This document shows positions 8,821 to 55,872 of a DNA stretch of 64,000 nucleotides, one piece after another (the first letter of the stretch is position 1; the number at the start of each line of letters is the position of its first letter). The notes below the pieces were generated by a model that ran no database searches, was not told where the DNA came from, and saw only the letters and a list, made by a program, of their open reading frames with translations. The position numbers and the translations under genes were made by a program. The stretch is from Alphaproteobacteria bacterium (lineage in GTDB: Bacteria; Pseudomonadota; Alphaproteobacteria; JAPOUT01; G958296285): assembly GCA_965209065.1 (NCBI GenBank), contig OZ242373.1, positions 320,567 to 384,566 on the forward strand, read 5' to 3'.

Positions 8821-9195
8821 TTGGGTGTAGAAAAAATAGATTTAGCAAAACAAGGGCTTGGCCGTGATATTTCTATTGGACTTTTAAGTGTTTTTTTTGG
8901 AATGTCTTTAGGTTTCATAACAGGGGGAGGGCTTTTAATTCCCCCGAAAGTTTATTTTCACAGCTACTTTGTTCTTTTATCTCTTTCTCTTATAGTTTCT
9001 GCAGTGTCAGCGTTTATGGCAATGTATGGAGTGCGTTTATTTGTAAAGAAAGATTTCTCCGCGCGTGTGATAGTTGGAGTAATTTCTAGCGTTATTGTGC
9101 TGACCTCTTCTTCTATAATTTTAATTTGGTATTTAGGACGCTATACAAAAATATTACATCCGCTTTGGTGGTTCCTTGGTTTTTCAGGAAAATGA
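8821..9195 (+). CDS. small multi-TM membrane protein, paralog 1, in an AT-rich islet
   Basis: 124 aa hydrophobic protein. Clearly paralogous to the next ORF (RDISIGLLSVFFGMSLGFITGG vs RDFMIGFLSAFVGAIYGFFLGA). Confidence 0.55.
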   Translation: MGVEKIDLAKQGLGRDISIGLLSVFFGMSLGFITGGGLLIPPKVYFHSYFVLLSLSLIVSAVSAFMAMYGVRLFVKKDFSARVIVGVISSVIVLTSSSIILIWYLGRYTKILHPLWWFLGFSGK

Positions 9196-9530
9196 AACAG
9201 ATAAGTTTATATAAAAAAGAATCTATGCGTGATTTTATGATTGGCTTTTTAAGTGCTTTTGTGGGAGCTATTTATGGTTTCTTTTTAGGGGCAATGTTCC
9301 TAACAAACCCAATGAGAGATTTCGAACGCTTTGTCGTTGGGTTTTCATCCTATTTTCCTATACTTCTTAGCGTGTTGGTTCTTGTGGGGATAGCCGTAAT
9401 ACATCTAGCCTTGTGGAAAATTTCTTCTGAACAAACTAGAACGATTATAACTGTTTTATTTTTTATTACTTATGGTATAAGTTTAACTTGGTTTTCATTT
9501 TATGCTTGGGATAGTAATTTTTTCTTTTAA
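9192..9530 (+). CDS. small multi-TM membrane protein, paralog 2
   Basis: Start chosen at MKQISLYKK. The ATGA overlap with the stop of paralog 1 suggests translational coupling. Confidence 0.55.
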   Translation: MKQISLYKKESMRDFMIGFLSAFVGAIYGFFLGAMFLTNPMRDFERFVVGFSSYFPILLSVLVLVGIAVIHLALWKISSEQTRTIITVLFFITYGISLTWFSFYAWDSNFFF

Positions 9531-9597
9531 AATAAAACATATAGGAGGAAATGATGGTGCTATGCTTAAAGCTCATCATTGAAGAGGGAGGTTTAAA

Positions 9598-10017
9598 TTG
9601 AAATTCTTAAATATGAATATGATTATACCATTCAAAATGCTTACAAGGCTTTTATCGCTTTTGGGAGGCATGCACATAATTTTTAAACTTCTTATTTTTA
9701 TACCCGGTGTTGTTCTCGGATCATTTTTTGCATTTCTTACGCTTGTGGGTGTTGGAATCCGTCCTGATGAAGAAATTTCTGCTAATGAAGTTCTTTTAAA
9801 AGCTATTCAAGTTTTCTTTTACCTCCTTTGGGCGTTTGGTGTCCCTGGGCTGATATTGTTTCTTGTTTTTAGTTTATCTGTATTGCTTTTTGAGCCAGCA
9901 AGTAAGCGCGCGCCCGATTTTGCACTCCAGGTGAGTTCAGTACTTTTTTTTCTACTTTTTGTTTCTATAACTTGGTGGATAACAGCAAAAGTTCTCATAA
10001 TTGATATGATTTTTTAA
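9598..10017 (+). CDS. small multi-TM membrane protein 3, a more distant relative of the two upstream paralogs
   Basis: 139 aa. TTG start 8 nt after a GAGGGAGG RBS (alternative ATG at 9613). Four predicted TM helices. Confidence 0.5.
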   Translation: MKFLNMNMIIPFKMLTRLLSLLGGMHIIFKLLIFIPGVVLGSFFAFLTLVGVGIRPDEEISANEVLLKAIQVFFYLLWAFGVPGLILFLVFSLSVLLFEPASKRAPDFALQVSSVLFFLLFVSITWWITAKVLIIDMIF

Positions 10018-28617: not shown

Positions 28618-28689
28618 TTAACGCTGCGTGAGCTTGAACTCTTAACGCTGGGTGAGCTTGAACTCTTAACGCTGGGTGAGCTTGAACTC
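28618..28689. repeat. 3 x 24-bp perfect/near-perfect tandem repeat (ttaacgctg[c/g]gtgagcttgaactc)
   Basis: Seen directly. One copy encodes the last 7 codons plus the stop (EFKLTQR*) of the MotB-like gene. The other two copies lie in the fabG/MotB-like intergenic space. Confidence 0.85.
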
Positions 28690-29634
28690 TATGCGCCGAT
28701 TGCGCCGCCACTCATTGGGGTTGGTCGCGCTCTTTAATGGGTGATACTGCCCAAACCCCGCCGCCACCAGATTTTGCGGCGGAACGCCTTGCTCCACCAA
28801 AAATTCAACCACCGCCAACGACCGCGCCACCGATAAATGCCAGTTAGACGGAAATGCCTTCGTCTTGATAGGCTGAATATCGGTATGACCATCGACCCGC
28901 AAAACCCAAGAAACTTTAGGCGGAATAGAACGGCGCACATCATTGATAACGCGCGCAACCTTGCCTAGCTGCACCTTGCCTTGACGCGAAACCCGCGCCT
29001 CTCCCGACCGAAACAAAACCTCTGATTGTAAAATAAATCTATCATCAACAATCTCAAAATCTTTTCTGTCGCGTAAAATATCGCGCAGCGCCTCCATAAA
29101 GGCAGAGCGATAACGCGCTAACTCTTGAACCTTGCTCGCCAAAGCCGTGTTGAGCCGCTTGCCGAGCTCTTTTATTTGCGCTTGAGACTTTTTGTCCTTC
29201 GCCTCGCTTGCTTGGAGCGCGGCTTCTAATGCCGCAAGCTGCTTTCTTAACTGCGCGAGCTGCCGATTCAATAAAACCAACCGCGCGTTCGCTTTTTCTT
29301 TAGCCGCCTTCTCTCCCGTCAAAGCGGAGGCGAGTGCCTTGTTGTTTTTTTTCGTTTTTTCTAAAGAGGCAACGAGCTCCGCCAATTCGGTTTTATAGTT
29401 TTCGCTCGTCACCTTTTCTAATGCCAGCAGTTGCGCTAACTCGGCGATGCGCGTTTCTAATTGCGTTATCGTTTTATCCTTGCCCGAAAGCAAATTGCCC
29501 AAGGTAAATTGCCCGACAACAAACAGCGCAAGCAAAAAAGTAATGACAAGCAACAAGGTTGCCATCGCATCAACAAAACCGGGCCAGAAATCTAACGGCG
29601 CGCGCGCGCGCGAGCGTCTGGCGAGACGCGCCAT
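28666..29634 (-). CDS. MotB-like stator/anchor protein. It has an N-terminal TM plus plug, a roughly 170-aa predicted coiled-coil linker, and a C-terminal OmpA-type peptidoglycan-binding domain.
   Basis: DFWPGFVDAMATLLLVITFLL resembles the MotB N-terminus. The C-terminus (VDGHTDIQP...NWHLSVARSLAVVEFLVEQGV...NRRIEF) is OmpA_C-like. The middle is a heptad-rich Ala/Leu/Lys/Glu sequence. Confidence 0.7.
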   Translation of the reverse strand: MARLARRSRARAPLDFWPGFVDAMATLLLVITFLLALFVVGQFTLGNLLSGKDKTITQLETRIAELAQLLALEKVTSENYKTELAELVASLEKTKKNNKALASALTGEKAAKEKANARLVLLNRQLAQLRKQLAALEAALQASEAKDKKSQAQIKELGKRLNTALASKVQELARYRSAFMEALRDILRDRKDFEIVDDRFILQSEVLFRSGEARVSRQGKVQLGKVARVINDVRRSIPPKVSWVLRVDGHTDIQPIKTKAFPSNWHLSVARSLAVVEFLVEQGVPPQNLVAAGFGQYHPLKSATNPNEWRRNRRIEFKLTQR

Positions 29635-30458
29635 TATTGACCTCGCAATTTAGCCAAAAGTTGGTCAAGCGATTCAGCCACCTCGCTGATGGCAGCTTGC
29701 GATTGACCCGCCGAAATATCGGGCAGGGCGGCGCCATCAAGCGCGAAACGCGCCGAAGTTGAAAGCCAATCCTCCAACTCCATCACAAAGCGGTTTTGCG
29801 CCTGCCCTAGCTGTAAGTCTAAAAAACCCAAAAGCAGCGAGCCGGCTAAACCAAAAAGCGAAGAGGAAAAAGCCGTCCCCATTCCCGCCAGAGGCTTTTT
29901 CAACCCGGCGATAAGCTGTGAAAACAAAACCGCAGATTGCCCGCCTTGTTCGCTCAACGAGGCGATTAAATCACCCACCGAGCTAATCGTAATCAAAAGC
30001 CCCCAAAAAGTTCCAAGCAGCCCCAAAAAAACCAGCAAGCCAATCATATAACGCAAAATTTCTCGCGTTTCTTCCATTCGCGCCGAAACGGAATCCATAA
30101 TAGAGGCAAGGCTCGTTTGCGTTAAAACCAGCTTCCCACCTGAGCGCATCACCATCGCCGCAAGCGGCGCCAGCAACTTAGGCGAAGGCACAGCAGCACC
30201 CGTGCCAGAGCTTAAAACATTCACCCAGCGAATCTCAGGCAGCAAAATCAGCACATAGCGAAAGGCATAAATCGCGCCGAGCACAAACACAAGCACGATA
30301 AGCCCGTTCAGCAGAGGGTTCGCATTAAAAAAAACCGACAACCGATTGGCAGGCGCGCTCAACGCGGCAACCGCCGCGAGGCTTATAAATAAAAAAACCA
30401 CCATGCGCACAATATAAGTCGAGGGCGCCGATAGGGGGGTGGCACTAGGATTAAACAT
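29634..30458 (-). CDS. MotA/TolQ/ExbB-family proton-channel subunit
   Basis: 274 aa with 2+2 TM helices and an roughly 80-aa cytoplasmic loop. GLLGTFWGLLITI is the family signature. Its stop and the start of the MotB-like gene share nt 29634. Confidence 0.7.
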   Translation of the reverse strand: MFNPSATPLSAPSTYIVRMVVFLFISLAAVAALSAPANRLSVFFNANPLLNGLIVLVFVLGAIYAFRYVLILLPEIRWVNVLSSGTGAAVPSPKLLAPLAAMVMRSGGKLVLTQTSLASIMDSVSARMEETREILRYMIGLLVFLGLLGTFWGLLITISSVGDLIASLSEQGGQSAVLFSQLIAGLKKPLAGMGTAFSSSLFGLAGSLLLGFLDLQLGQAQNRFVMELEDWLSTSARFALDGAALPDISAGQSQAAISEVAESLDQLLAKLRGQ

Positions 30459-30528
30459 AAAGAATCATAACATATTCACGGGACATATATTAGATTAACC
30501 AAAAGAATAAAATTGCTATACTAAAAGA

Positions 30529-31743
30529 ATGATTAAGAATCGCACGCTATTTACAGGCGATAATTTACCAATTATGCGCGGTATGGAAAATGAAAGCGTG
30601 GATTTGATTTACCTTGACCCGCCTTTCAATTCTAACCGCACCTATTCAGCACCAATTGGGAGTAAGGCAGCAGGCGCTGCTTTTAGGGATGTTTGGACAC
30701 TTGATGATACCGATAACGCTTGGTGGGGCGAAATAGCAGACGAATACCCCTCACTTTATAAAGTGATAGACGCAACCGGTGAAGTAGGAGGCAAAGGTGA
30801 TAAAGCCTATCTGATTTATATGGCAATGCGCTTGCTTGAAATAAGACGGATATTAAAACCAACGGGCTCTATCTATTTACACTGCGACCAAACAATGAGC
30901 CACGCCCTCAAAATGACAATGGATGCCATATTCTGTAGTGGCAAGGGCAGATTCTTAAATGAAATTGTATGGTGTTATACAGGACCAAGCAATACAAAAC
31001 AATACTATCCTAAAAAACATGATGTTTTATTGTTTTATGTGATGAGCTATGGCAGTCATGTTTTTAATGGCGATGCGATAAGAACATCTTATACTAAGCT
31101 AGAAACAGGTAAGACAGGCGGTATATTCAAATCTTCTGCGACTTTAAGGGAAGATGGCAAAATACCCGAAGACTGGTGGGAAGAAAAACGAGACGGAATG
31201 ACGCCAGTAGGAAGGCTAATCAAGGAACGCACGGGTTATCCAACACAAAAGCCACTCGCCTTACTAGAGCGCATTATCAAAGCTTCCAGTAATAAAAGTG
31301 ATATAGTCTTTGATCCTTTTTGTGGTTGTGCGACTACCCTCATCGCTGCTGAAAAGCTCCAACGCCAATGGATAGGGATTGATATATCACGGAAAGCAGT
31401 TGATTTAGTTAAAGAGAGGTCAAGAAATGAACTTGGTCTTGTCGGTGGTTTTGGTAAGCTAGGCATTACGATTAGAACTGACATACCCAAACGCAAAAAA
31501 GATATTAAGCGTTCGAAAAACATCAAGCACACTCTTTATGGAGAGCAAGAGGGCAAGTGCCGCGGCTGCAAGCTATGGTTTCCCTTTAGAAACCTAACGG
31601 AAGATCACATTATTCCTCAAAATAAGGGAGGAGCAGATGACGATTCTAACCTCCAGCTTTTATGTGGCTCGTGTAATAGCACTAAGGGCGACCGAGAGCA
31701 GAGCTATCTTGACGCTAGGCTAAAGGAGCTAGGTATCCTATAA
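30529..31743 (+). CDS. beta-class DNA amino-methyltransferase (probably N6-adenine, Type III Mod-like core) fused to a C-terminal HNH endonuclease domain
   Basis: Motif IV DLIYLDPPFNS; GSIYLHCD...FLNEIVWCY; YPTQKP; motif I DPFCGCATT. Then CRGCKLW...EDHIIPQNKGG...NLQLLCGSCNSTKG is a textbook HNH. Confidence 0.8.
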   Translation: MIKNRTLFTGDNLPIMRGMENESVDLIYLDPPFNSNRTYSAPIGSKAAGAAFRDVWTLDDTDNAWWGEIADEYPSLYKVIDATGEVGGKGDKAYLIYMAMRLLEIRRILKPTGSIYLHCDQTMSHALKMTMDAIFCSGKGRFLNEIVWCYTGPSNTKQYYPKKHDVLLFYVMSYGSHVFNGDAIRTSYTKLETGKTGGIFKSSATLREDGKIPEDWWEEKRDGMTPVGRLIKERTGYPTQKPLALLERIIKASSNKSDIVFDPFCGCATTLIAAEKLQRQWIGIDISRKAVDLVKERSRNELGLVGGFGKLGITIRTDIPKRKKDIKRSKNIKHTLYGEQEGKCRGCKLWFPFRNLTEDHIIPQNKGGADDDSNLQLLCGSCNSTKGDREQSYLDARLKELGIL

Positions 31744-31756
31744 GCCCGCATATTTA

Positions 31757-32143
31757 TTATTGCCTCAAAGATATATCTACCCGCTGGCAAGGCGATTCGC
31801 AAATATTGCCTTGAGGCATAAGAATAATGTCTTTTACGCGAACCTTGTGCTGTAGCAGATAATCGCGCACGGCTAAGGCGCGCTTCAAAGAGAGGCGAAA
31901 GGCGCTCCAGCTCGGCTTGTTCGACAAAACCGCGTAGGCTTTTATCTCAAGACGCGTCCTGTTTTTTTTCTGGTCTTTCTGGTCTTTCTGATATTTTTTT
32001 ATCACCCCGTCTAGTTTTGCCGCCGCGCCTATCGGCAGGGTTGCGCTGTCTTCAAAAAATATAATGCGAACTTTATTCTCCGCTAACGCATCTGATAAGG
32101 TAAAAAATAAAAAACAAAAAGCAAATGCACGTAGCATGTTCAA
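31757..32143 (-). CDS. small secreted protein with a degenerate OmpA_C-like domain
   Basis: Signal peptide FCFLFFTLSDALA. IFFEDSATLP...AKLDGVIKKY...SAFRLSLKRALAVRDYLLQHKV follows the OmpA_C pattern but lacks the G-H-T-D turn. It is the last gene of the efp-suhB operon. Confidence 0.45.
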   Translation of the reverse strand: MNMLRAFAFCFLFFTLSDALAENKVRIIFFEDSATLPIGAAAKLDGVIKKYQKDQKDQKKNRTRLEIKAYAVLSNKPSWSAFRLSLKRALAVRDYLLQHKVRVKDIILMPQGNICESPCQRVDISLRQ

Positions 32144-32907
32144 GAAATAAGCTGCTTATGCAAAGCGGGATTGGCGGCAGTCAAAGCCGAATGGCTTGCG
32201 CTGAAGTCAATGGGTTTGCCGTCTGGCGTTGTTATCATAGCACCCGCCTCGCGCGCGATGATGGCACCTGCCGCAATATCCCACAGGGCTGCCTCGCCGG
32301 TGATGAAGCCATCGAGCCGCGCGGCTGCCGTCCATGCGAGTGCTAAAGATATCGCGCCTAATTGACGCGTGTGCGCACCTTGTCGCATCATCGATAAAAG
32401 CCTCTCGCGAAAAGCGCCCAACCTGCCGTAAGACAAAAGGCTACGCGACAAATGCGTGGTGGTTGATACGCGAATGCGCTTGTCGTTTAGATAAGCCCCT
32501 TGTCCTTTCTCCGCGACAAACATCTCGTTGTAAAAAGGAGCGTAAATCACGCCAGCGATAATTTCATCTTTCTCCGCCGCCGCGATGGATATAGCAAAAA
32601 AAGGAAAGCCGTGAATAAAATTCCGTGTGCCGTCAAGAGGGTCAATAATCCAGCGGCGCGAACGTTCATCAAGCCACGCACCTTTTTGTTCGCCGCGCTC
32701 TTCGGCTAGAATCGCAAACTGCGGACGCGCCTCGCTCAATTTGCGGCAGATGATTTCCTCCGCCTTCAAGTCGGACTGCGATACATAATCTTGATTGCCT
32801 TTTACAGAATAGCGCAACGCCTCGCTTTCGCCGAAGTCGCGTATCATAGAGCGCGACGCTTGCCGCGCGGCGTCAATCATCACGAGTAAAAGAGGACTAT
32901 GACGCAC
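32140..32907 (-). CDS. suhB: inositol monophosphatase family protein (SuhB)
   Basis: IDPLDGTRNFIHGFPFFAISIA and the WDIAAG motifs. Confidence 0.85.
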   Translation of the reverse strand: MRHSPLLLVMIDAARQASRSMIRDFGESEALRYSVKGNQDYVSQSDLKAEEIICRKLSEARPQFAILAEERGEQKGAWLDERSRRWIIDPLDGTRNFIHGFPFFAISIAAAEKDEIIAGVIYAPFYNEMFVAEKGQGAYLNDKRIRVSTTTHLSRSLLSYGRLGAFRERLLSMMRQGAHTRQLGAISLALAWTAAARLDGFITGEAALWDIAAGAIIAREAGAMITTPDGKPIDFSASHSALTAANPALHKQLIS

Positions 32908-53876: not shown

Positions 53877-54752
53877 ATGGAATACAAGTTAGAATTTTTT
53901 AATAAAAATATTGACGATTCTATAATACATGGAAATGCTCTTGATGTTTTAAAGTCTCTGAACGATCAACTGGTAGATTGTATTATCACTAGCCCCCCAT
54001 ATTATAAGCAAAGGGATTATTTTACAATATCGCAGATAGGGAGCGAACTTACAGAAAAACAATATGTTAATTCGTTAGTTCAAGTTTTTTTAGAAGCAAA
54101 AAGAGTATTAAAAGATACTGGAACTTTTTGGCTAAATTTAGGTGACAAATATGTGGATAATAATCTATTGGGCTTGCCTTGGCGAATAGCTTTAGCTTTG
54201 AAAGAAGTGGGGTGGGTGTTAAGATCTGATATTATATGGCATAAGCCAAACGCAATGCCTTCTTCAGTTAAAAATAGACCCACCATAGACCATGAGTACG
54301 TCTTTTTGTTTGTAAAAACGCAAAAATATTTTTATGATGCTGATGCAATAAGAGAGCCACATATAACTTTTTCTGATAAAAGTAAAATGTCTGGAGGAAG
54401 AAATCATTTTGGAGTACGCAATGGAACTCCAGAAAATGGGAAAAACTCAGGGAATCCAAATCTTCATAACGGTAGATGGGACCAAGCATTCCACCCACTT
54501 GGACGCAATAAGAGAACAGTTTGGAGCGTCCCATTATCAAAATTTCGTGACGCACATTTTGCAGTCTTTCCAGAGAAGCTAATAGAACCATGTATTCTTG
54601 CAGGATGTCCTGTCGATGGGTTAGTATTAGATCCGTTTATGGGATCTGGAACTACAGGTATAGTGGCAATGAAAAATGCTAGAAGGTTTTTAGGAATAGA
54701 TATAAATAAGAAATATTGTAATATGGCTAAGAGAAGACTTATAAACCTCTAA
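53877..54752 (+). CDS. beta-class DNA amino-methyltransferase, SPPY-type (probably N4-cytosine)
   Basis: CIITSPPYY motif IV precedes the DPFMGSGTTG motif I, and AHFAVFPEKL is present. It lies in an AT-rich islet. Confidence 0.85.
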   Translation: MEYKLEFFNKNIDDSIIHGNALDVLKSLNDQLVDCIITSPPYYKQRDYFTISQIGSELTEKQYVNSLVQVFLEAKRVLKDTGTFWLNLGDKYVDNNLLGLPWRIALALKEVGWVLRSDIIWHKPNAMPSSVKNRPTIDHEYVFLFVKTQKYFYDADAIREPHITFSDKSKMSGGRNHFGVRNGTPENGKNSGNPNLHNGRWDQAFHPLGRNKRTVWSVPLSKFRDAHFAVFPEKLIEPCILAGCPVDGLVLDPFMGSGTTGIVAMKNARRFLGIDINKKYCNMAKRRLINL

Positions 54753-55617
54753 ATAAATTGATTTTTTCTACTAGAGCATTGGTTAGTTTTTGTGTCACAT
54801 CAATAATTTGATTTGGGTTCATGTTGATGTATATAAAATCTTTACAGTCGAGATCTGCAAGATTTCCCGTCCACGATTCTGCAATTATAATTGGTAAACA
54901 ATCATGCCCTTCTTCATAAGCAACTCTTATTGCTTTATGAATATCTCTTGTAAAAAGATTAGAATGTCCTCCCCCCATAGTTTCTCTTGTTTTTACAGGA
55001 ACTAAAATAGATTTCGAACCTTTTTTTATTTGAATGTCATAGGTTTCTCCGCTTATGCTTTTTTGTTTTTCACTTACATGTATTGGCAAGTTGTTTTTTT
55101 TAAATAATTCTATTAAGACTCTTCTAACAATTGCTTCAAACAAGTTGCCTTTAATAGCCCTCCTGCTTCCTTCAAGTCTATCTATAACAACTTCTATAAT
55201 TGCATGCCATTCCCAACTTTTTTTATCTGGAAATATGGTTATTAAATTTTTTCTAACTTCATTTATTAAAAATGATTTTTTTTGATATGTATTGCCTTCA
55301 ATAGATGACAAAATAGGTCTAAGCCTTTGTTCTGGGGCATCCCTAAGTATCCATCCACACATAAGCCACTTTGCTTTATCTGATTTGTATGCCCTAGCCA
55401 CTCCATCATATAATTTTATATTATCTGGCATTTGGTGGGCTAAAAATCTTTCTAATACATGCAATGCTTTTGTATCGTCTTTTTCATTTACAAAATCATG
55501 TAAAGATTTATATCCGTTATTATTTAAAAATTTAATTATGTAATAAAAATAATCCTTATTTTTATCAGCGATAATTTTTAATTCTTTTAGACGGATATTT
55601 TCTATAATATACTCCAT
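54739..55617 (-). CDS. putative Type II restriction endonuclease partnered with the adjacent MTase
   Basis: It is convergent with the MTase, overlapping by 14 nt, and shares its low GC. No recognisable family. Possible PD-(D/E)xK-like ...YDIQIK.../...VPVKTRE.... Start at the internal MEYIIEN. Confidence 0.45.
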   Translation of the reverse strand: MEYIIENIRLKELKIIADKNKDYFYYIIKFLNNNGYKSLHDFVNEKDDTKALHVLERFLAHQMPDNIKLYDGVARAYKSDKAKWLMCGWILRDAPEQRLRPILSSIEGNTYQKKSFLINEVRKNLITIFPDKKSWEWHAIIEVVIDRLEGSRRAIKGNLFEAIVRRVLIELFKKNNLPIHVSEKQKSISGETYDIQIKKGSKSILVPVKTRETMGGGHSNLFTRDIHKAIRVAYEEGHDCLPIIIAESWTGNLADLDCKDFIYINMNPNQIIDVTQKLTNALVEKINLFRGL

Positions 55618-55872
55618 AGCTCTCCATAGTTCACATAGATTGTTTATAAAGAGGAAAAGAAAGAAGCACAAGAGCTTAAAGCAAAAAATATATGCTTCTT
55701 TGGTTTGTTCTTTAATTAGCCTCTAGTTTCAGGAGTAAGGAATACGTAAAACACATAAAAAATATGTAAATTGCCTTTATCTTGTTTAAACATATAAGCC
55801 CTTAAAAAACCTGCTTGCCTCGCTGGGGGCGATTTGCTATCATTAAGACTCAAACTTGAAATGGAGGCAAAA

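Follow-up and report, generated by a model that had tools for sequence, protein, structure and literature searches.

How can a bacterium carry a DNA nuclease and a DNA methyltransferase (MTase) in one polypeptide and still spare its own chromosome? The question is raised by a gene lying in a 64,000-nucleotide stretch of DNA from an Alphaproteobacteria bacterium (assembly GCA_965209065.1, contig OZ242373.1, positions 320,567 to 384,566), hereafter the window. An initial annotation, made from the sequence alone, had read the product as a Type III-Mod-like amino-MTase core that bears an HNH nuclease at its C-terminus, had asked how self-DNA is spared, and had offered a nickase or homing-type enzyme as an alternative. 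We found the fusion to be real. Our preferred reading, to which we give somewhat better than an even chance, is that it is a single-chain restriction-modification (RM) enzyme in which the target-recognition domain (TRD) of the MTase would direct both protective methylation and cutting or nicking by the HNH. The parts of the gene, with amino acid (aa) positions, are as follows.

30529-31743, plus strand: open reading frame (ORF) for the MTase-HNH protein, 404 aa (ORF call, Pfam)
30598-31416, plus strand: N6_N4_Mtase domain, beta-class, aa 24-296 (Pfam, invariant columns, fold matches)
30616-30627, plus strand: motif IV DPPF, aa 30-33
31312-31335, plus strand: motif I DPFCGCAT, aa 262-269
31024-31224, plus strand: TRD, a hypervariable cassette, aa 166-232 (entropy, indels, pairwise identity)
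31429-31533, plus strand: variable basic linker between MTase and HNH, aa 301-335 (mean pairwise identity 40%, indels)
31558-31695, plus strand: HNH nuclease domain (HNN-type, CCCC zinc), aa 344-389 (Pfam HNH, HNH_5)

The methyltransferase core

The ORF exists exactly as first described, as one polypeptide of 404 aa in which Pfam recognizes both domains. The N6_N4_Mtase domain scored 154.5 bits (E 5e-45) against a cut-off of 26.7, and the motifs DPPF, YPTQKP (aa 237-242) and DPFCGCATT (aa 262-270) are present, with motif IV preceding motif I as the annotation had claimed. The order IV...X...I, with the TRD lying between motifs IV and I, is that of a beta-class N6/N4 amino-MTase. When the query was aligned with 118 homologs (119 sequences in all), both the MTase motifs and the HNH active site were invariant in every member. 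The best PDB sequence matches of the MTase part were M.BceJIV, MboIIA, CcrM and RsrI (E 1e-18 to 1e-13), whereas the match to EcoP15I Mod was much weaker (E 2e-7). A YhdJ-type NCBIfam model was among the best profile matches, the top PHROG match was a phage DNA MTase family, and PADLOC scored MTase_II at 183 bits versus 114 bits for MTase_III. The label "Type III-Mod-like" therefore holds for the beta-class motif order with a central TRD, but small Type II and orphan beta-class MTases match far better and there is no Res. In the AlphaFold2 model, built on the family alignment (pLDDT 87.5, pTM 0.88, with pLDDT lower in the linker), the fold matches were M.BceJIV, CcrM, RsrI and MboIIA at a TMq of ~0.5, so that the MTase part alone was matched. 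Given the aspartate of motif IV and the structural neighbours of the N6-methyladenine (m6A) type, the enzyme probably methylates adenine at N6.

The HNH nuclease domain

Pfam placed an HNH domain at aa 344-389 (48.7 bits, E 8e-13, cut-off 21.4), and HNH_5 also matched. Nine positions of this segment, C344, C347, D359, H360, N374, C379, C382, N383 and K386, are invariant in the 119 sequences. The putative zinc ligands C344/C347/C379/C382 align with C38/C41/C73/C76 of Gmet_0936 (PDB 4H9D), and D359/H360/N374/N383 align with D53/H54/N68/N77, the proposed catalytic residues of that protein (PMC3765158). A residue-for-residue alignment was also obtained with a Cas9 HNH, and the AlphaFold2 model has a beta-beta-alpha element at aa 356-386. 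The general-base His, the Asn, the final metal-binding Asn and the two CxxC pairs that mark HNH (beta-beta-alpha-Me) domains are thus all there. The annotation had called the C-terminal HNH complete, and had named two ways in which this could prove wrong, a degenerate segment lacking the His or metal ligands, or a known phage MTase family with a non-catalytic finger. All of the catalytic and zinc residues are intact, and no characterised family of the latter kind was found. Judged by its residues, then, the HNH is catalytically complete, and the invariance of these residues across 119 diverged sequences argues for a selected catalytic role. Gmet_0936, the nearest characterised stand-alone HNH, is a weak and non-specific nickase (PMC3765158), which suggests that the HNH of the window protein would need a targeting domain.

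Exchange of recognition cassettes

The TRD is by far the most variable part of the protein. Per-column entropy, which is 0.5-0.9 bits in the cores, rises to ~2-3 bits in aa 166-232, where indels are many. Pairs of sequences share on average 66-70% identity over the cores and 27.7% over the TRD. The 119 sequences fall into 53 TRD clusters, and scaffold and TRD identity are uncorrelated (r = 0.05, 7,021 pairs). Paralogs within one genome share 88-94% identity in the N-core, C-core, linker and HNH and 20-36% in the TRD; in the pair P0036/P0104 the C-core, linker and HNH are 100% identical while the TRDs share 22%. By these comparisons the scaffold is conserved, and the TRD is exchanged on it as a cassette.

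An exchange of this kind can be seen in the window gene itself, when it is set against its closest homolog (L001, 86% identity), which comes from the same sample as the window locus and lies in another genome context.

30831-31330, plus strand: recombinant tract carrying the TRD (95.4% DNA identity to the L001 copy; sliding window)

Identity of the two genes is 95.4% in these central 500 bp, 84.4% in the 5' part and 71.7% in the 3' part, which holds the linker and HNH (Fisher p = 2e-20). The crossover points fall in DNA coding for conserved motifs. The pattern of identity indicates that the TRD-bearing segment was recently exchanged between the window gene and L001.

Exchange of the nuclease module

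The nuclease end of the protein is also exchanged. In three loci Pfam found the same MTase scaffold with a C-terminal T5orf172/MUG113 domain, of the GIY-YIG superfamily, in place of the HNH.

L025, 5986-7233: T5orf172 variant
L027, 5989-7260 and 7495-8811: T5orf172 variants
L030, 5986-7305: T5orf172 variant

One TRD type was found paired with either the HNH or T5orf172 (z ~18-22). Taken with the Mrr-like fusion described below, the domain assignments indicate that the nuclease module is interchangeable between HNH, T5orf172 (GIY-YIG-like) and Mrr-like forms. Since the HNH has been replaced by two other nuclease folds, DNA cutting appears to be a selected property.

Some of these loci are of interest in themselves. 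The two T5orf172 copies of L027 stand in tandem and differ in their TRDs, and L030 comes from Spirochaetes bacterium COTS27. The Streptomyces Likavirus phages Ejemplo and Hippo (L067 2465-4120 and L068 2465-4108) carry a ~550-aa N6_N4_Mtase with a C-terminal Mrr_cat/NA-iREase1 domain of the PD-(D/E)XK type; the fusion genes adjoin a serine integrase and are annotated merely as methyltransferases. Streptomyces phage matches had been considered as MTase-HNH proteins and were rejected, since Pfam shows their C-terminus to be Mrr_cat/NA-iREase1.

Proposed mode of action

The HNH is complete, non-specific in its nearest relative, does not co-vary with the TRD and is replaceable, which suggests that what has been selected is an MTase with a cutting effector aimed by its own TRD. 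In such an enzyme the TRD would read a short DNA motif, and on the host chromosome that motif would be kept methylated. Where the enzyme bound incoming DNA at an unmethylated site in the same way, the non-specific HNH would come to lie beside that site and make a nick, or a cut of both strands if the enzyme forms dimers like known beta-class MTases. These steps, from the domains present to restriction of unmethylated DNA, are inferred from the sequence. As recognition and protection would use one TRD, self-DNA would be spared; that the HNH does not co-vary with the TRD fits one recognition module serving both activities. Specificity could change by cassette exchange, without ever uncoupling methylation from cutting. 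The puzzle of self-DNA posed at the outset has a known answer in the single-chain Type IIG/IIL enzymes, which use one recognition module, and the family data fit it. With all the needed parts in ~1.2 kb under its own short promoter, the gene may be expected to behave as a selfish or defensive mobile unit, and elsewhere it travels as cargo of an IS1595-family insertion sequence (IS) and probably on phages.

The insertion site in the window

The window gene is a recent strain-specific insertion into a housekeeping operon of this marine alphaproteobacterium, as became evident from alleles in which it is missing.

30475-31751, plus strand: inserted unit of 1,277 bp, with an AT-rich leader of 54 bp before the ORF and a tail of 8 bp after it (filled allele aligned with empty allele)
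30471-30474, plus strand: CATA at the left junction, a 4-bp microhomology or a repeat like a target-site duplication (again at 31749-31752; once in the empty site)
30495-30522, plus strand: promoter-like TTAACC-16-TATACT with a TG extended -10 (7 nt separate its end from the ATG; no Shine-Dalgarno)

The empty site was found in L064, from the same metagenome sample, where the stop of the small OmpA-like gene and the start of the MotA-like gene are 24 bp apart with nothing between. The MotA-like protein of L064 is 99% identical to that of the window, and the flanks of the filled and empty alleles agree at 281 of 284 positions. Filled alleles (the window and L060) and the empty one (L064) all occur in one sample, and relatives at 82% and 75% identity are likewise empty at the site. 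The gene-sized insert is therefore polymorphic at an otherwise conserved site, as a homing gene would be. It has a GC content of 0.420 and a third-position GC (GC3) of 0.385, versus 0.52-0.55 and ~0.56 in neighbouring genes. Beyond the 4-bp CATA, a match that could be chance, the window junctions have no terminal inverted or direct repeats, and one TAA/AAT unit beside the junction also differs between the alleles. The neighbours in the window include no integrase or transposase; they are FabD, FabG, a MotA/ExbB-like and OmpA-like pair, a small OmpA-like protein, SuhB and EF-P. No res, hsdS or separate nuclease gene was found nearby, and no res gene within 10 kb on either side or in four other family contexts inspected; the annotation's remark that no restriction or specificity subunit adjoins the gene was borne out, the neighbours all being housekeeping genes.

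The insert lies antisense in the 24-bp spacer of what appears to be a SuhB/small OmpA-like/MotA-ExbB-like/OmpA (MotB-like) operon (28666-32907, minus strand), with no terminator. In the filled strain, expression of the MotA/MotB-like genes downstream could be affected by convergent transcription.

From the position of the promoter-like element the mRNA may be leaderless; promoter-like sites in the region are not above shuffle expectation. A TGCTATAyT box is kept in the independently inserted copy L001. The extended -10 and leaderless layout was considered as a feature of the family and rejected, because upstream regions in 22 other loci are unrelated and the layout is shared only with L001. 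Also rejected was P0002 (310 aa, 100% identical, no HNH) as a natural HNH-less allele, as it comes from the same locus in a 5x long-read assembly in which the neighbours are split too, and is an artefact. The low-coverage long-read assembly of the window locus itself (L060, ERZ25069786 contig ctg45112) has SuhB in two pieces and the MotA-like and MTase genes truncated by indel errors, and it is a caution on taking truncated database proteins for natural variants.

Distribution of the family

A word-indexed protein search gave at least 8,000 matches to the window protein; nearly all of the best 120 were 390-430 aa long, with both domains and 54-87% identity, and the few named ones include Dadabacteria and Cellvibrionales. 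An exhaustive profile scan over 1.84 billion representatives yielded 6,128 matches at E <= 1e-30 and more than 150 clusters at 50% identity, and all 150 representatives among the matches listed had E <= 1e-117, most of them spanning the HNH. In a search of species-representative genomes, which is biased to relatives of the query, full-length matches were found in metagenome-assembled genomes (MAGs) from many phyla, whose labels are Poribacteria, Dehalococcoidia/Chloroflexi, 'Porisulfidus', Paracoccaceae, Parvibaculaceae, Arenicellales, Bdellovibrionales, Acidobacteria-like and Spirochaetota. Such lineages have been reported to live in sponge microbiomes, the habitat being read here from lineage names. 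It was previously reported that RM systems are enriched and laterally transferred in sponge symbionts (PMC8163846).

Several genomes hold 2-4 copies of the family. One 1.98-Mb contig has three paralogs, each a solitary gene with unrelated housekeeping genes on both sides and the downstream one only 1-2 bp away, and no partner gene is conserved across the window, L001 and the three paralog contexts. The fusion was absent from the cultured plasmids searched. Viral contigs gave 564 relatives, among which MTase-only proteins were abundant, while an HNH was present in ~4 of the best 80 (L069-L071, L100); L069 has tail-fibre-like neighbours. Among the viral predicted structures of BFVD none spans both the MTase and the HNH.

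A few contexts and variants may be recorded here. In L001 (8001-9164 and 9344-10843) the 86% homolog is convergent with a 16S rRNA gene, whose 3' end is 180 bp away. Two further N6_N4 MTase genes, a SocA_Panacea gene and one of the ABC_tran/AAA_21/DUF4435 type belong to the same locus, and the neighbourhood looks like a defence island. P0338 is an MTase-HNH protein of 650 aa with a C-terminal extension of ankyrin repeats, which are typical of sponge symbionts, and P0241 (1,598 aa) has three N6_N4_Mtase domains and no HNH. In L062 (179-1592, minus strand), ~4.4 kb from a fused paralog, a 277-aa N6_N4 MTase and a 192-aa HNH protein weakly resembling AbiEi_4 come one after the other with 1 nt between them; they are either a real system of two genes or a fusion broken by a frameshift.

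Homopolymer tracts and an insertion-sequence vehicle

Homopolymers of at least 11 nt were found at five places in 68 loci, and four of the five are at the 5' end of family genes.

L003, 5977-5990: C14 tract, preceded by an upstream ATG and followed by the conserved N-terminus
L004, 5971-5990: C20 tract, in the same position
L057, 5952-5971: C20 tract, in the same position
L038, 5953-5973: G21 tract, ending 6 nt before the ATG, in a promoter or 5' untranslated region position
L003, 4894-7444, and L004, 4888-7444: IS1595-family element of 2.55 kb with MTase-HNH as passenger (Paracoccaceae MAG OZ241902.1)

In silico, a change of one C restores an ORF of 402-405 aa in L003 and L004, and in L057 it restores the conserved N-terminal frame (first 112 nt). 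By their placement the tracts in some relatives appear positioned as on/off switches. The window gene has no tract of at least 7 A/T or at least 6 C/G, and so lacks this mark of a phase-variable gene. The IS1595 element is bounded by perfect inverted repeats of 23 bp, and its two copies are flanked by different target duplications of 8 bp, TTAAGAAA and AAATAAAG. Inside it a DDE_Tnp_IS1595 transposase is followed by MTase-HNH, and the copies in L003 and L004 differ solely in tract length (C14 versus C20).

Weighing the explanations

RM systems, viewed as defensive or selfish genes, typically show what is seen here: TRD turnover, paralogs, gain and loss between strains, foreign composition, homopolymer tracts, and carriage by an IS and probably by phages. 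The same gene-sized insertion could also be that of a homing-type selfish element, in which the HNH breaks empty alleles or other DNA so that repair copies or integrates the cassette, the MTase serves as a binding module and for self-protection, and phage defence is incidental. The window insertion is clean, ORF-sized and strain-polymorphic, with 4-bp microhomology and no transposase, other copies sit just as tightly between housekeeping genes, the closest relative lies in another genome context of the same sample, and the HNH and GIY-YIG domains swapped in the family are the classic folds of free-standing homing nucleases. Yet MTase TRDs read short genome-wide motifs rather than one long site, homing elements protect themselves by target disruption and have no need of an MTase, and independent copies are found at unrelated sites, at least one lineage moving by an ordinary IS1595 transposase. 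Extreme TRD diversity with a constant HNH fits selection on specificity better. Thus, of the homing alternative raised by the annotation, the strain-specific, ORF-sized insertion is an echo, but the protective MTase and the TRD diversification are better accounted for by RM, and we regard homing as unlikely. A switchable orphan MTase of the phasevarion type, acting as an epigenetic regulator with the HNH as an accessory nickase, a repair function or a zinc-finger DNA clamp, seems equally doubtful. It would leave unexplained why the catalytic HNH residues are invariant in 119 diverged sequences and why the HNH is replaced by two other nuclease folds, and several TRD-differing paralogs per genome with presence and absence between strains are atypical of core regulators. 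In its favour, M.BceJIV (the closest solved structure), CcrM and YhdJ-type enzymes are orphan MTases that work without a restriction partner, poly-C/G tracts and swapping of TRD alleles are hallmarks of phase-variable mod genes in host-adapted bacteria, and the window gene is solitary among housekeeping genes. Repair nicking has moreover been proposed for HNH proteins like Gmet_0936 (PMC3765158). That the gene is a phage-derived counter-defence gene, whose MTase shields phage DNA, whose HNH serves in packaging, nicking or degradation of host DNA, and whose chromosomal copies are remnants, is quite improbable in our view. MTase-only relatives abound in viral contigs, a few of which carry the full fusion (at L069 beside tail-fibre-like genes), the Likavirus genes fuse an MTase to an Mrr-like domain, and the top PHROG match is a phage family; against this stand the rarity of the HNH among the best viral matches, the lack of a BFVD model with both domains, the absence of phage genes around the window copy and the three paralogs, and the form of the window insert, which is a bare gene and not a prophage.

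The single-chain RM enzyme is itself opposed by a number of observations. Relatives of the HNN type can cut feebly, a single active site per chain would give only a nick unless the protein is a dimer, and T5orf172 is itself a putative nuclease. The window copy does not lie in a defence island, PADLOC assigns only a generic Type II MTase, and m6A is suggested by the motif IV aspartate and the m6A-type neighbours alone. All three coding poly-C tracts (L003, L004, L057) are OFF as assembled, homopolymer lengths in assemblies being unreliable. No solved PDB structure, by sequence or fold search, covers both the MTase and the HNH, and no paper, solved structure or defence-system model for the architecture, or characterised member of it, was found, though putative REBASE listings may exist; domain surveys (PMC4738411) mention MTase-nuclease fusions in general terms, and there are predictions on other such fusions (PMC1564403).

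Building on the RM enzyme, one may speculate that the bare ~1.2-kb genes are self-spreading minimal RM elements, whose own nuclease breaks allow microhomology integration at arbitrary intergenic sites as well as TRD conversion. We hold this to be an outside chance. If true, it would explain how one scaffold occurs in many phyla of sponge holobionts and gains new specificities without a dedicated recombinase.

Other islands in the window

A second foreign island was found at 53877-55671 between housekeeping genes (GC 0.30-0.35, GC3 0.21-0.25). In it a 291-aa beta-class MTase, whose SPPY motif IV suggests methylation of N4-cytosine, is convergent and overlapping with a 310-aa ORF that has no Pfam match; the arrangement resembles a classical Type II RM system of two genes. 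Another small island may lie between aspS and guaB (8821-10017), where three ORFs of 124, 134 and 139 aa without a Pfam match sit in DNA of low GC (0.41).

Significance and relation to known systems

If active as proposed, the window protein would be among the smallest complete RM systems, with 404 aa in one gene under its own promoter, and it joins a beta-class MTase to an HNH, where known single-chain enzymes join a gamma-MTase to a PD-(D/E)XK nuclease. On a scaffold that hardly varies, the family presents dozens of natural TRD cassettes and several nuclease modules, which amount to a natural experiment in reprogramming specificity and are a possible source of compact site-directed nickases or cutters. 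For the enrichment and lateral spread of RM systems reported from sponge symbionts, it would also supply a concrete and traceable gene family, for which metagenomes show gain and loss between strains, cassette exchange between co-resident genomes, putative switches and hitch-hiking on an IS.

Like the window protein, the Type IIG/IIC/IIL enzymes (MmeI, BpuSI, Eco57I-type) have nuclease and MTase in one chain, one recognition module, which settles self-protection and allows specificity to shift in a single step, and a solitary gene. Enzymes of the MmeI/BpuSI type have a gamma-class MTase and ~900-1000+ aa. MmeI (PMC2582602) and BpuSI (PMC3185434) are described as large multi-domain enzymes that begin with the nuclease at the N-terminus (PD-x15-ExK in BpuSI), continue with the MTase and end in a C-terminal recognition domain, whereas the window protein, with its 404 aa, has a central TRD and a C-terminal HNH. 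A Campylobacter Type IIG enzyme with phase variation is also known (PMC4889913). No sequence or fold match of the window protein to known Type IIG families was found; it is not homologous to them, their folds and domain order being different, though it probably works like them.

With the Type III Mod proteins (EcoP15I, Mbo45V) the window protein shares the beta-class order and central TRD, and its relatives share TRD exchange and homopolymer tracts. A Mod needs a Res helicase-nuclease partner, whereas the window gene has none and carries a fused nuclease instead; with no Res partner and a weak affinity to Mod families in the comparisons made, it is not a Type III Mod. M.BceJIV, CcrM, M.RsrI, M.MboIIA and YhdJ match aa ~1-300 and have the D-P-P-aromatic motif IV, but none has a nuclease domain.

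For the nuclease, the CCCC-zinc HNHs (Gmet_0936, Cas9/IscB HNH, McrA-type, Hpy99I) have the same D-H...N...N residues and two CxxC pairs. In Hpy99I, Cas9 and McrA a non-specific HNH is aimed by another domain, and in the window protein the aiming domain would be a DNA methyltransferase, an arrangement for which no characterised example was found in the literature. Homing endonucleases and RM systems have been discussed as two versions of one strategy (PMC1564403). Free-standing HNH and GIY-YIG homing genes and mobile RM units share with the family the gene-sized insertion, presence and absence, and interchange of HNH and GIY-YIG; unlike homing genes, the window family has its own protective MTase, unrelated insertion sites and TRDs for short motifs.

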